Made by a program: the position numbers and the translations under genes. This document shows, piece after piece, positions 8,936-13,312 of a DNA stretch of 64,000 nt. Under the pieces are notes generated by a model. That model saw only the letters and a list, made by a program, of their open reading frames with translations, was not told the DNA's origin and searched no databases. Positions within the stretch are counted from its first letter, which is position 1. Each line of letters begins with the position of its first letter. The stretch covers positions 381,789-445,788 of the forward strand of contig CAVWXH010000016.1 in NCBI GenBank assembly GCA_963758915.1. Direction: 5' to 3'. This DNA is from an uncultured Methanomicrobiales archaeon. GTDB lineage: Archaea; Halobacteriota; Methanomicrobia; Methanomicrobiales; Methanospirillaceae.

Positions 8936-9256
8936 TTATTCCGGGACAATTTTTTCGAGCTGCAATAGGATTTCATCTTCAAAACGTCCTCGGACCAGGA
9001 CTTTTTTCTGGGAGGAGGTTGTACCCGATACAATGCTCACATCATTTCGTGAAACATGTAACACCCGGGCTATCAACCCGATAATAGCGATATTTGCTTT
9101 TCCTTCGACAGGCTGGGCGGAAACCTGGCAGCCCAAAGACTTTCTCCATGGATTGTAACCTGATGGAAATGAGTCAGATTTACACCCGGTTGAGACCTCG
9201 ATAGTAATAATCGTCCCATTGGTGGAAGTAGTCAGGGCTTCCGATATATCTGCCAT
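8936..9256 (-). CDS. UPF0235/DUF167 (YggU-like) protein
   Basis: GYNPWRK, AQPVEGKANIAI, IVSGTTSSQKKVLV. ATG at 9256 follows GGGTGA. Confidence 0.88.
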   Translation of the reverse strand: MADISEALTTSTNGTIITIEVSTGCKSDSFPSGYNPWRKSLGCQVSAQPVEGKANIAIIGLIARVLHVSRNDVSIVSGTTSSQKKVLVRGRFEDEILLQLEKIVPE

Positions 9257-9390
9257 CAAATACCTATCACCCCATACCCACATAATCTGCCCGGTTATCC
9301 CGGGGTGGGCACAAACCATGCAATGAAAAGTGAATGGGTGAATATATCGTAAAACCAGATTATCCCGATACCAAAAAAACGTTCAATTGG

Positions 9391-9562
9391 ATATGTCGCC
9401 CGACGTTAACAAGTTGGGATCACCAGTGGCATGTCGCCGTTCTTCACCCGCTTTTAACCCTGTCGGGCGGTGCCTGTCGCAAAACCGGGTTGTCCCGAAG
9501 TTCATTTCCAGGCGCTTGCCAGTCGATCACCCGGGGACCTATGGAAGTGCTGTATCGGCACC
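9391..9562 (-). ncRNA. Two-hairpin box H/ACA pseudouridylation guide sRNA
   Basis: Two stem-loops, each with apical K-turn-like GUGA(N)NGA/UGA elements and a downstream ACA (9477-9475, 9396-9394). Pockets are complementary to conserved 23S rRNA sites. TATA-like ATAAATA upstream, T7 run at 9379-9373 downstream. Confidence 0.8.
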
Positions 9563-9604
9563 ATTCACATTTCGTCGTCCCGGTATTTATCCAGTGCCCT
9601 TGTA

Positions 9605-10927
9605 TCATTCCACCGCGTGATACCCTCTTCCCGGGTACCACCGCGGGTCCTGCTTATAAAATTCCCCGTTATGGTAGACAATCCTCCCTTCCATTATGAC
9701 AATGTCAGGAAATATTGCGGGAAGCCCTTCGAAGGGTGACCACCCGGCCCGGCTGTGCAGGTCTCCTGAGACAACCCGGGTAATTTCTTTGGGATAGAGC
9801 GCAAAATCTGCCCGCTCCCCGGGAGCAAATCCTGCCGGTGGGATCCCGAGAATCTCACAGGGCTTCCGGGAGACCTTTTCAACAAGAGTTGTCATCGGTA
9901 TCTTTCTTTTTTGTACTTCAGCGAGCAGAAGAGGGACCATCGTCTCAACACCCGGTATTCCTGATGGTGCATTTGGAAAATCTATAGTCTTTTCAAGTGC
10001 CGTATGTGGTGCATGGTCTGATGCGATGACATCTATCCGGTCCCACATGTTCCAGAGCCCTTCCTGGATTTTTTTATCCCGGAGCGGCGGGTTCACTTTA
10101 GCACGGGCATCACCAGAAAGGAAGTCCTGGTTTGCAAGGAGCAGGTGGTGTGGTGTCACTTCGAAAGATGTCATGAAACCCCGGGAATTACCAGGCTTAT
10201 CCCGGGGTATGCCGTTCAATTGTCTCCTCTGTTCTAAAACTACCTCTATTGCCCTGGCTGAACTCATGTGGCAAAAATGGAGCTGACACCCGGAAACATT
10301 AAGATTACAGACATTCCTTACTGCTTCTGCCTCACCCTGTGGAGTGCGGTTGGAATCGTGCGCGGTCATGGTCTCCGGTTGTAATGGCCCGACGTCTTCT
10401 GCATGGATTGTTGCAAGACTATCCATATGACTGATTGCCTGTAGTGCCATTGAAAGGTCATGGGATGACAGGGCTTCTCCATAACTTGATGGTCCTGCAA
10501 ATATTTCACCGAAAGCCATGGCACCTGCGCTCCATAACGAAAAAAGGTCTGCCCCAGGCGTAACACCTGCATTTATTGCAAAACCACAGCATGCATGAGA
10601 AATTGCTTCTTTTACGCGACTGTTAAAGCGGTGTGAAGTGGTAAGGGCCGGGACAGTATTTGGCTGGTCGACAACGAGTGTAACACCTCCTGCGATGGCA
10701 CTTCTCGTCCCGCTATGCCAGTCTTCTTTTTCCGACTGGCTTCCCCCACGCATATGGACGTGCATATCCGTCGCAGCAGGAATCAGCAACATACCATGGC
10801 AGCGGACATATTCATCTGACTTTTCCACTGCACCAATGTGGATTACCCGCCCCTCCTTAAATCCAATATCTGCTCTCCTCCCGTCAGGGAGTGTTACATC
10901 GTAAAGGGCAAGGTCAGATCCGGACAT
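9605..10927 (-). CDS. pyrC: Dihydroorotase
   Basis: DMHVHMR, AIAGGVT, DQPNTVP, HAED, EVTPHHL, KVNPPLR, ASDHAPH, PSGIPGVET. Confidence 0.9.
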   Translation of the reverse strand: MSGSDLALYDVTLPDGRRADIGFKEGRVIHIGAVEKSDEYVRCHGMLLIPAATDMHVHMRGGSQSEKEDWHSGTRSAIAGGVTLVVDQPNTVPALTTSHRFNSRVKEAISHACCGFAINAGVTPGADLFSLWSAGAMAFGEIFAGPSSYGEALSSHDLSMALQAISHMDSLATIHAEDVGPLQPETMTAHDSNRTPQGEAEAVRNVCNLNVSGCQLHFCHMSSARAIEVVLEQRRQLNGIPRDKPGNSRGFMTSFEVTPHHLLLANQDFLSGDARAKVNPPLRDKKIQEGLWNMWDRIDVIASDHAPHTALEKTIDFPNAPSGIPGVETMVPLLLAEVQKRKIPMTTLVEKVSRKPCEILGIPPAGFAPGERADFALYPKEITRVVSGDLHSRAGWSPFEGLPAIFPDIVIMEGRIVYHNGEFYKQDPRWYPGRGYHAVE

Positions 10928-11047: not shown

Positions 11048-13312
11048 CTAACTATGTTCATCCGGGAGGAGGCACGCTTCTCCCTCCTCACGTGGCCTTG
11101 GCTTTTCAAGCCTGCCCATGACAGAAAGGATTGCGGGCATTATAATGATGGCCCCAATCAGCGAGAACCCGACAGCAATCAGCGTCGTGATTCCAAAATT
11201 GCTGATGATCGGGAAGCTCGCAAATAAGAGCGCGGAAAACCCGAAAAATGTTGCCAGTCCCGAGATGGTAATTGCAGTGCCTATCCGTTCAACACTATGA
11301 TGGATGGCACTCATGGGGTCACCGAGATTATCAAACTCTTCAGCATACCGCTCCATAACGAGGATTGTGTACTCAGCTGCGACCCCGATTGTCATTGAGC
11401 CGAGGGTAGCTGTAAGCGGGGTATAATCGATCCCGAGAAGGTACATGGCAGCGGCATTCCAGCCCACTACAAGAATAATTGGTACGAGCGGCGTGACAGC
11501 ATGGACTCTGCGATAGACCAGCAGCAGGAACATAAATACCAGGATGAACCCAAGTGCGGTCATCTGTTCTTTTGATGAGGATAAGGAGCCGATAAGACGC
11601 GTAAACAGGTCAAAACTACCGGAAGGGGCTGCATTGATGCCGGCAGGGGGGGGATTGAATGCAATGTCACCGATTACCAGTTCCTTTAACGAGGATTGCT
11701 GTGTGGTCTCAAGTTTTACCGTGGTAAACTGGATTACCCCGTCTGTAGAACCTACCAGGTATGCCTTTTTAATATCAGCCGGGATTAGGGATAGCACCGT
11801 ATCAAGTTCATTCTGTGTTACCGGCATCTGCCCGTTATTATAAGCGAGGACATAGGTAACAATACTGGTCGCACCCGTAAGCTGACTATGCCGGTTCAGT
11901 TCATCGTCCTGGAACTGCTTTATCCATTTAATGGTGACCAGGGAACTTACCCCATCCCCGTTCAGGTAAATGGGCACGGTGCTCGTCGCACCATACATCC
12001 TGGTAACCTTATCGTTCAGGACCTTGGCCGGCATGTCTGACGGGACAAACGTGTTTTCATTTGTCTGGATTGGAATATAGGAATCGATCTGGAACCCGAT
12101 GACCGCGATTACGCAAGCCACGAGAAGAATCGGGACAGGATTTTTTGCAATTTTCATTGAAGTTTTTGTCAGCAGCGCACTATACGAAAAACTGCCTTTC
12201 GATGATGGTTTCTTCACTTTTGGTTTATACTTCAGGAGGATGGCTGCAGTGGGAATGCCGATCAGGGATGCCAGGTAACAACAGGCAATCCCTATGATGG
12301 AGACCAGCCCGAAACTCTGAATCATCGGCACCGGGGAGATGAACATGGCAACAAATCCCATGCAGGTCGCAAGCATCGCATAGAGGACTGCAGGGCCGGT
12401 CTTGGTAATCGTCATGAAAATTGCCTGTTCCATTGAGCCCTTTCTGATTTCCTCGTCAAACCGGGAATGGAACTGTATTGCATAATCAATTCCGAGCCCA
12501 ATAAGGACAGGGAATGCGCCGAGTACTGCCATGTTCAACTGGATCCCGACAAGGCCCATGAGGCCCATAGACCCGACGAGTCCTATCGTGACCATCAGTA
12601 CCGGCAGGAACCGGTGGCTGACAAACGAGAACAGGATACCCATCACAATGACCATTAAGATAAGGGCTGCAAAGATGAGGACCCCGGCAGAGGACCCCAT
12701 CGAGCTCTGCATCTGCTTGGAGAACGCGGCACTCCCGGTAAGTGATATTGTTACACCAGGTGGTGGATTGGCATTATCAACGAGACTCTGCAAATTGGTA
12801 AGGAGATTGGTTTTTGCTTTTTCCGAAAGGCCTTCATTCACATCAACCCGGATTATCGTGATCAGGTTTGACTGGCTATAGACTGCAAGGACATTTGGAG
12901 GTACCCTGGTCTCAGCATCCTGTATCTCACCAACTGAGGTTGGGAGGGCACCGTTGTTGGCCTGCTTCAGGATATCAGCAATGCCAGAAACGCTCTTAAT
13001 ATTCTGCTGGCTGCGGATCGATTCTTCAAGTCCGTCCATAAAATGCAGCATATCAGGACTTATCGGTGTATCGGTATCAATGAACAGTACAACCGGGTCT
13101 GACTGGAACGTGGTAATATATTTATTATACTGGCTGCCTTCTGGTGAATCTTTCACCATGTATGTTTCCCACCCGGACTGCATGGAAATCATCGTCATCC
13201 CGTACAGGCAGACAATAAAAAGTGCTACAACGATTCCTGCGACCAGCATCGGGTGATGGGTAATTACGTTTGCAAGCCGTTCAAATATTTTCTTCACAAT
13301 AATCTTGTCCAT
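11048..13312 (-). CDS. RND-superfamily (MMPL/HAE3) transporter
   Basis: Duplicated architecture of 1 TM + extracellular loop + 5 TM. Motifs IGLGIDYAIQFHSRF and IGVAAEYTILVMERY. Confidence 0.9.
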   Translation of the reverse strand: MDKIIVKKIFERLANVITHHPMLVAGIVVALFIVCLYGMTMISMQSGWETYMVKDSPEGSQYNKYITTFQSDPVVLFIDTDTPISPDMLHFMDGLEESIRSQQNIKSVSGIADILKQANNGALPTSVGEIQDAETRVPPNVLAVYSQSNLITIIRVDVNEGLSEKAKTNLLTNLQSLVDNANPPPGVTISLTGSAAFSKQMQSSMGSSAGVLIFAALILMVIVMGILFSFVSHRFLPVLMVTIGLVGSMGLMGLVGIQLNMAVLGAFPVLIGLGIDYAIQFHSRFDEEIRKGSMEQAIFMTITKTGPAVLYAMLATCMGFVAMFISPVPMIQSFGLVSIIGIACCYLASLIGIPTAAILLKYKPKVKKPSSKGSFSYSALLTKTSMKIAKNPVPILLVACVIAVIGFQIDSYIPIQTNENTFVPSDMPAKVLNDKVTRMYGATSTVPIYLNGDGVSSLVTIKWIKQFQDDELNRHSQLTGATSIVTYVLAYNNGQMPVTQNELDTVLSLIPADIKKAYLVGSTDGVIQFTTVKLETTQQSSLKELVIGDIAFNPPPAGINAAPSGSFDLFTRLIGSLSSSKEQMTALGFILVFMFLLLVYRRVHAVTPLVPIILVVGWNAAAMYLLGIDYTPLTATLGSMTIGVAAEYTILVMERYAEEFDNLGDPMSAIHHSVERIGTAITISGLATFFGFSALLFASFPIISNFGITTLIAVGFSLIGAIIIMPAILSVMGRLEKPRPREEGEACLLPDEHS

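Follow-up and report, generated by a model that had tools for sequence, protein, structure and literature searches.

The 64,000-nucleotide (nt) window analysed here (assembly GCA_963758915.1, contig CAVWXH010000016.1, positions 381,789 to 445,788 of the forward strand) comes from an uncultured Methanomicrobiales archaeon of the Methanospirillaceae. On its minus strand, an intergenic block of 169 nt (9562-9394) lies between an upstream open reading frame (ORF) of 440 amino acids (aa; 9605-10927) and a downstream DUF167 ORF (8936-9319, start codon at 9319), both co-oriented with it. The block very probably encodes a double-hairpin box H/ACA guide small RNA (sRNA), about 170 nt long. In function and architecture it would be the Methanomicrobiales ortholog of sR-h45 from Haloferax volcanii and of motifs 2-3 in the Afu-4 and Pf7 RNAs. 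An initial annotation, made from the letters of the window alone, had proposed such a guide with two targets in 23S ribosomal RNA (rRNA), and all the elements that it named were found where it had placed them in the minus-strand reading, including the ATAAATA and U7 motifs and the GGUGCC/GGCACC strands flanking hairpin 1. The RNA is also unannotated, as had been claimed: no Rfam family matched it when the whole window was searched at gathering thresholds, and a search of 9250-9700 at E values up to 10 returned three chance-level matches only, all to unrelated families. The upstream neighbour, which had been called pyrC, does belong to the amidohydrolase family, while the dihydroorotase label is unconfirmed (its Pfam Amidohydro_1 match is weak, E 7e-08, 32.5 bits, and indicates the general family only).

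In a BLAST search with a 196-nt query, 39 of 41 relatives had a match, with identities of 70-98%. The conserved stretch starts at GUGCC (9561) and ends directly past the second ACA (9394), with both flanks unalignable, and the length of the block ranges from 168 to 184 nt across relatives, the indels having lengths that are not divisible by three. A covariance model (R1) built from 38 relatives matched this block over its full length (184.6 bits). In a sample of the class it matched 150 of 151 genomes; each of the 6 families was represented, as were 32 of 32 genera, and all but one of the matched genomes had a single match. Across a sample of the phylum the same model matched 80 of 151 genomes, and some of the matches in other classes span both hairpins in full. 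Named genomes were also scanned for an exact pattern, which retrieved at least 119 stretches; among the matches listed, 80 of 80 titles were of Methanomicrobiales type, among them Methanoregula, Methanoculleus, Methanospirillum, Methanolinea, Methanocalculus, Methanogenium and Methanofollis, so that the order named in the initial annotation is correct. One genome of the same order (G027, locus L230, G027:C1:2914029-2914518) had its hairpins matched separately (2914320-2914468 and 2914079-2914165), 154 nt apart rather than adjacent, an arrangement that recalls the long linker of haloarchaeal sR-h45; a genome of the same genus (G069) gave a contiguous 175-nt match.

The structure was drawn by eye as 48 base pairs (bp) and then scored on alignments. 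In a MAFFT alignment (A1), 86.9% of the cells were paired and 28 of the 48 pairs had changed on both sides, against 13.9 ± 1.8 in shuffles; this number was reached by none of 500 shuffles, and slid controls gave 8-12. The model-fitted alignment (A3), which includes other classes through 10 outgroup sequences and is biased towards the model by construction, had 41 of 48 pairs changed on both sides (shuffled, 26.9 ± 2.2). RNAalifold, run independently on A1, recovered the outer helix, both lower stems and both apical stems. Each hairpin consists of a lower stem, an internal pocket, an upper stem, a tandem G-A kink-turn (K-turn) and an ACA box. The lower stem of hairpin 1 had been described as weak, and three central mismatches do interrupt it in this genus; they are confined to it, and in relatives the stem is a well-paired helix of 8 bp (e.g. 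GCGCACCC/GGGUGCGC and UCACGUGC/GCAUGUGA) in which both partners have changed in 6 of the 7 pairs scored. Because this stem has 8 bp in relatives, the 3' pocket strand of hairpin 1 should be read as (AC)AACCC and not as the 10-nt strand AACCCGGUUU originally put forward: the AACCC in it is pocket, and GGUUUUGC is the 3' strand of the lower stem.

The K-turns share one layout: the 5' strand has (U)GA, the 3' strand has GA together with a bulge of 3 nt, and the distal stem is 2 bp long. The non-canonical stem is located next to the pocket, which is how kink-loops lie in solved archaeal H/ACA RNAs. At the level of sequence, every G-A dinucleotide, on either strand, is invariant among the 38 relatives or conserved in at least 90% of them, and the distal 2-bp stems covary (U-A/C-G, C-G/U-G and G-C/G-C in hairpin 1, A-U to G-C in hairpin 2). 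The G-A stems have 9 (hairpin 1) and 10 (hairpin 2) layers, inside the published range of 8-11 or 9-10. Both ACA boxes are invariant in the 38 relatives, and outgroups carry ACA, AUA, AAA or AGA. The spacing from pocket to ACA is 14 nt in hairpin 2 and, in hairpin 1, 14 nt from A9491 or 16 nt from A9493, so that both of the 14-nt counts made initially are correct, and there are zero indels between pocket top and ACA among the 38 relatives. Majumder et al. (2020) describe a rule of 14-16 nt from the target-adjacent guide nucleotide to the ANA box. The comparison with relatives that had been suggested as a check of the guide reading found the pockets, the ACA boxes and the K-turn G-A pairs kept.

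Enclosing hairpin 1 is a further helix, P0, with 94.8% of its pairs formed and 2 of 5 pairs changed on both sides; in one relative (L036) a 5-nt insertion leaves GGCAC nonetheless intact. Judged by this covariation and by the helix-preserving insertion, the outer helix GUGCC/GGCAC is real in the class, as the initial annotation had it, and it is missing in the outgroup sequences compared. The first ACA lies in an internal loop, where GACA (9478-9475) stands opposite a conserved GAUACA (9556-9551); no K-turn or other known motif could be fitted to this GAUACA/GACA loop. The positions of all elements are collected below.

Features of the guide RNA locus, in window coordinates
Feature	Position	Strand	Evidence
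Whole conserved RNA: 5' helix strand, hairpin 1, ACA, helix strand, hairpin 2, ACA	9394..9562	-	conservation, covariance model
TATA-like box ATAAATA, starts 28 nt upstream of the block	9584..9590	-	A/T-rich heptamer in relatives
Outer helix P0, 5' strand GUGCC	9557..9561	-	pairs with 9474-9470; RNAalifold agrees
Outer helix P0, 3' strand GGCAC, between first ACA and hairpin 2, abutting both	9470..9474	-	covariation, RNAalifold
Hairpin 1 lower stem, 5' strand GCACUUCC	9543..9550	-	8-bp stem with 9486-9479
Hairpin 1 pocket, 5' strand AUAGGUC (GGUC = 9539-9536)	9536..9542	-	invariant or nearly so in 38 relatives; kept in other classes
Hairpin 1 upper stem, 5' strand CCCGGGU, and K-turn G-A (9528-9527)	9527..9535	-	G35, A36 invariant; upper-stem pairs covary
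Hairpin 1 K-turn bulge AAU (9506-9504), G-A (9503-9502), upper stem 3' strand (9501-9494)	9494..9506	-	U59, G60, A61 invariant
Hairpin 1 pocket, 3' strand ACAACCC (AACCC from 9491)	9487..9493	-	invariant in 38 relatives
Hairpin 1 lower stem, 3' strand GGUUUUGC	9479..9486	-	alignment and covariation
Internal ACA of hairpin 1 (H-box position)	9475..9477	-	invariant, 38/38
Hairpin 2 lower stem, 5' strand CGCCCGAC	9462..9469	-	8-bp stem with 9404-9397; 99.3% paired; compensatory A-U/G-C/U-A changes
Hairpin 2 pocket, 5' strand AGGGUUAA	9454..9461	-	AGGGUUA complementary to helix 69
Hairpin 2 upper stem (UGA...UGAU), K-turn (G-A 9445-9444, 9421-9420; bulge GGU 9424-9422), apical stem-loop	9420..9453	-	U141, G142 invariant; A143 at least 90%
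Hairpin 2 pocket, 3' strand GUUAAC	9405..9410	-	GUU invariant; G9410 14 nt before ACA
Hairpin 2 lower stem, 3' strand GUCGGGCG (9404-9397), and terminal ACA (9396-9394)	9394..9404	-	conservation ends after ACA
U7 run, candidate terminator, 15 nt past ACA	9373..9379	-	sequence reading; unconserved

To find the targets, every U in the organism's own 16S and 23S rRNA was scanned for bipartite pairing around an unpaired UN. Both target stretches expected from the initial annotation are present in its 23S rRNA. For hairpin 2 the best own-rRNA site is U1955 (Escherichia coli 1915), with 4+7 bp: GUUA pairs with UAAC (1951-1954) and AGGGUUA with UGACCCU (1957-1963). Helix 69 was correctly named as the target, in letters that differ from those proposed; the organism has UAAC[UA]UGACCCU, with UGACCCU in the place of UAACCCU, and therefore the 7 bp of AGGGUUA include one G-U. 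The literal motif UAACCCU occurs once in the 23S rRNA, at position 498, and this is not helix 69. Nearly all of 48 guides, compared by eye because automatic pairing at times chose wobble-rich alternatives such as one to 1922-1927, carry a GGG(U) element complementary to the CCC in helix 69. In outgroups the strand often reads GGUCA, which matches helix 69 entirely by Watson-Crick pairs and leaves no more than UA free, and some guides within the class leave UAU or UAUG unpaired, as in Haloferax. Since U1957 can be paired by the final A of AGGGUUA, which leaves UA alone unpaired, modification of U1955 only is predicted in this genus.

The target strand of hairpin 1, GAGCUGGGUU[UA]GACC, is found in the own 23S rRNA exactly as proposed and contains U2615 (E. 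coli 2586). The pairing comprises 5-7+4 bp, GGUC with GACC and AACCC with GGGUU, and in this genus the 3' strand of the lower stem can lengthen it to 10 bp (10+4). Wherever they are assembled, the two target stretches are letter-identical among the relatives (27 of 41 and 24 of 41).

These architectural features and targets match those of described guides and place the RNA in a known family (sR-h45 / Afu-4 motifs 2-3 / Pf7-Pab40). According to Majumder et al. (2020), the 5' hairpin of sR-h45 makes pseudouridine (Psi) 2605, the third of three U's of which the first two pair with two A's, while Psi1940 and Psi1942 are the products of its 3' hairpin, which leaves UAUG unpaired, the G of this UAUG being limited to G-U pairing. 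Grosjean et al. (2008) equate these Haloferax positions with E. coli 2586, 1915 and 1917, and treat the haloarchaeal hairpins as homologs of stems II and III of Pf7, adjacent in Thermococcales and spaced in halobacteria. The hairpin order and the targets are the same in our RNA, so the equivalence with sR-h45 drawn at the outset agrees with both descriptions: the 5' hairpin would serve the third U of GGGUUUAG (2605 in H. volcanii, 2621 in Haloarcula marismortui, 2586 in E. coli), the two U's before the target are paired to two A's, the 3' hairpin would serve the UAUG of helix 69 (E. coli 1915/1917) with G paired only as G-U, and tandem G-A K-turns and an ANA box after each hairpin occur in both. 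The two differ in that sR-h45 is described with a 56-nt linker and a possible pseudoknot, whereas here the hairpins are adjacent and a 5-bp helix joins the 5' end to the linker; in the first box, AUA there and ACA here; and in that Haloferax leaves UAU(G) unpaired and modifies both U's, whereas only 1915 is predicted for this genus.

Afu-4 of Archaeoglobus fulgidus and Pf7/Pab40/Pho40 of Thermococcales are likewise described with adjacent hairpins, and with a motif 3 that targets the equivalent of E. coli 1915. Unlike our RNA they have a third hairpin (motif 1), motif 2 of Pab40 has switched to site 1932 through a K-turn mutation, and the published descriptions of Afu-4 and Pf7, in the parts available, mention no outer helix. 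The eukaryotic U19 and snR191, named by Grosjean et al. (2008), resemble it in that one guide serves the loop positions of helix 69 and in the hairpin-hinge-hairpin-tail layout, but they lack a K-turn, carry their H box (ANANNA) in a hinge that is single-stranded, and have Nhp2 replacing L7Ae. What goes beyond the known family is the class-specific closing helix and a conserved double complementarity of hairpin 1, considered below.

The genome encodes Cbf5 (341 bits), Nop10 (77 bits), L7Ae (82.5 bits) and, with a weak match, Gar1. In 36 of 38 relatives an A/T-rich TATA-like heptamer starts at -31 to -26 (mode -28) and overlaps the end of the upstream ORF; in most relatives the last codons of this amidohydrolase-like ORF overlap the guide RNA promoter. 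The U7 run was tried as a conserved terminator and rejected, as no more than 12 of 38 relatives have a T run of at least 4 in the 40 nt concerned. Eighteen of 24 sequencing runs listed with part of the stretch are RNA libraries. Three of four metatranscriptome runs examined gave one contig each (151, 153 and 242 nt, spanning 9399-9549, 9400-9552 and 9310-9549), with 0 differences. The 151- and 153-nt contigs, which come from two studies, fall inside the block and the 242-nt contig extends downstream; together they are a hint of a discrete, abundant RNA. The contig from run X1 extends past the U7 run as far as 9310, close to the first codon of DUF167, and suggests read-through or co-transcription towards DUF167 in at least one sample. 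Farther upstream, and unrelated to the guide RNA, lies the gene of a 754-aa MMPL/RND-type membrane protein (11048-13312, minus strand; Pfam MMPL, E 4e-53).

Taken as a guide, the RNA would be transcribed from its own TATA promoter, each hairpin being bound by L7Ae at the K-turn and by Cbf5-Nop10-Gar1 at the lower stem and ACA box. The pocket of hairpin 2 would pair with helix 69 and place own U1955 in the active site of Cbf5, and U1957 (E. coli 1917) may be placed there too in certain lineages. That of hairpin 1 would pair with the peptidyl-transferase-centre strand GGGUU[UA]GACC and so place own U2615. Protein binding, the exact ends of the RNA and the formation of pseudouridine at these sites are what we infer for it. 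The identification as an H/ACA guide itself, made in the initial annotation, is borne out by the covarying stems, the G-A pairs of the K-turns, the ANA boxes, the 14-nt spacing and the complementarity to the organism's own 23S rRNA.

Several observations weigh against this identification. The Gar1 match, in a 91-aa frame, scores 25.3 bits, below the Pfam cut-off of 29.3. The RNA contigs are uninformative as to strand, ends and level, an RNA library may contain DNA, and the fourth run examined (X8) yielded no contig, which is no evidence of absence. In three families of the phylum (f14, f15 and f16) the covariance model matched 0 of 33 genomes. The single sequence does not fold more stably than its shuffles (z = -0.56; 53 of 200 fold as well or better), so folding energy carries no weight and the case beyond chance is made by conservation, covariation and target complementarity. 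The complementarity of hairpin 2 is by itself only modestly unusual, its best-site score being reached by 47 of 1000 shuffled pockets, and in this genus own U2235 scores nearly as high; that site, GUAAC[UC]UAACUUU, offers the hairpin 2 pocket 4+7 bp with two wobbles, and its match is regarded as chance. In the U2615 pairing of hairpin 1, two guide nucleotides that lie between the upper stem and the helix with the target, A9493 and C9492, have no partner. The likeness to sR-h45, Afu-4 and Pf7 was set by published descriptions and not by sequence alignment. A literature search of weak scope found no pseudouridine mapping for this organism or order.

Other explanations of the block account for less of this evidence. 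It could have the architecture of an H/ACA RNA and act mainly in a non-catalytic role, as a chaperone of rRNA folding or an orphan guide, with no pseudouridine at the predicted sites. Pseudouridylation there is, after all, a prediction from sequence; loss of sR-h45 or of cbf5 is described as tolerated in H. volcanii; and the outer helix puts the first ACA into an internal loop, a departure from the textbook layout. We nevertheless hold such a role to be very unlikely, since the stems have drifted around pocket nucleotides that do not vary, the 14-nt ruler to the ACA is kept without indels, and the homologous Haloferax RNA is reported to guide these modifications in vivo and in vitro.

A cis-acting element, either in the 3' untranslated region of the amidohydrolase-like gene or in the leader of DUF167, is more improbable still. 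Gene order around the RNA is kept class-wide, with the flanking genes present in 37 of 38 and 38 of 38 relatives and both co-oriented with it, and one RNA contig reaches close to the DUF167 start. On the other hand, both flanking genes are missing beside the homologs at 12 of 12 outgroup loci; as the synteny is class-wide yet absent from all of these loci, the RNA is not tied to its neighbours, which favours a trans-acting RNA. The block also has its own position-conserved TATA-like box, and the ACA boxes, K-turns and rRNA complementarity would have no role in a cis element, a reading that we reject on these grounds. Least credible of all is a small protein gene on the opposite (plus) strand, such as the ORFs 9334-9699 or 9387-9620. 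A frame is indeed stop-free across the block in 28 of 38 relatives, but the ORFs have no Pfam match and run into the unconserved flanks, and the indels, together with substitutions that are compensatory in the helices, lead us to reject it as well. The H/ACA guide sRNA remains the preferred reading of the block.

When hairpin 1 is scored against all of the organism's own 16S and 23S rRNA, the top-scoring site is not U2615, which comes second (7+4 bp), but U2584, in the A loop (helix 92). Here UC is left unpaired between two helices of 6 bp each (6+6), ACAACC with GGUUGU and AUAGGU with GCCUAU, at 16 nt from the ACA. Lying 31 nt upstream of U2615, U2584 corresponds to E. coli 2555, three positions past the equivalent of Um2552 given by Grosjean et al. 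(2008). The initial annotation had missed this second, equally good predicted target. At this stretch of the A loop, GGUUGUUCGCCU is found in our organism and in 11 other genomes checked, and GGGAGUUCACCC in the 23S rRNA of three genomes (G209, G190 and G200; loci L219, L239 and L240) of one genus of another class (g56, family f12). The variant of that genus includes an A at the equivalent of E. coli U2552, a position that is 2'-O-methylated in H. marismortui (Grosjean et al., 2008).

Hairpin 1 may accordingly have a dual-specificity pocket, serving U2584 by a register shift besides U2615 or, in some lineages, replacing it; we consider this a real possibility, though one that falls somewhat short of an even chance. 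U2584 is its best fit in the own rRNA. The best-site score of hairpin 1 is reached by 10 of 1000 shuffled pockets, and a second-best site of equal quality by 1 of 1000. The U2584 pairing puts to use the conserved AUA (9542-9540) and AC (9493-9492), which are idle in the U2615 pairing and kept in other classes. Against this, the AC may be fixed merely by pairing the GU of GGUC in the free RNA, as RNAalifold draws it, guides of family f8 lack the first A of ACAACC, and one outgroup guide (G229) reads CAUGGUC, with the AUA match lost while the rRNA is unchanged. In the three genomes of genus g56 an A replaces the U of the A loop opposite guide position 9491 and the guides carry U there, a change that is compensatory for the U2584 pairing and disruptive for the U2615 pairing; this guide-rRNA covariation is a single event.

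The literature on the related RNAs points both ways. Muller et al. (2008) report that motif 2 of Afu-4 was first assigned to A. fulgidus 2601, prefer 2632, the equivalent of Psi2621 of H. marismortui, and judge the 2601-type pairing to be outside their rules. The gap between these two candidates is 31 nt, as it is between U2584 and U2615, from which it would follow that the double complementarity of hairpin 1 is old, and Toffano-Nioche et al. (2015) enter L2601 as shown by Tang et al. By contrast, the tables of Grosjean et al. (2008) for H. marismortui 23S rRNA give no pseudouridines other than those equivalent to 1915, 1917 and 2586, and the account of sR-h45 by Majumder et al. (2020) assigns its first stem-loop (SL1) to position 2605 alone. 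On this mixed evidence we put forward, tentatively and with the balance leaning against it, that hairpin 1 is a conserved two-register pocket for two functionally central uridines of 23S domain V, E. coli 2586 and 2555, and that the outer helix holds the two ribonucleoproteins (RNPs) together, replacing the haloarchaeal linker. If this were true, the A-loop pairing would span positions that carry Um2552 and Gm2553 in H. marismortui, at one of which guide and rRNA have covaried in one genus, and the dispute over Afu-4 motif 2 (2601 versus 2632) would be resolved as both.

For the Methanomicrobiales, these results amount to a concrete prediction: a near-universal and mostly single-copy guide, with pseudouridines in helix 69 and in the peptidyl-transferase region, as in haloarchaea. 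The family has no Rfam entry, and the covariance model and alignment make its annotation across the phylum possible. The outer helix provides a structural variant with which to study how two archaeal H/ACA RNPs are arranged on one RNA. Finally, the dual complementarity of hairpin 1, along with the one compensatory change, would make the 20-year-old ambiguity over Afu-4 motif 2 directly testable.

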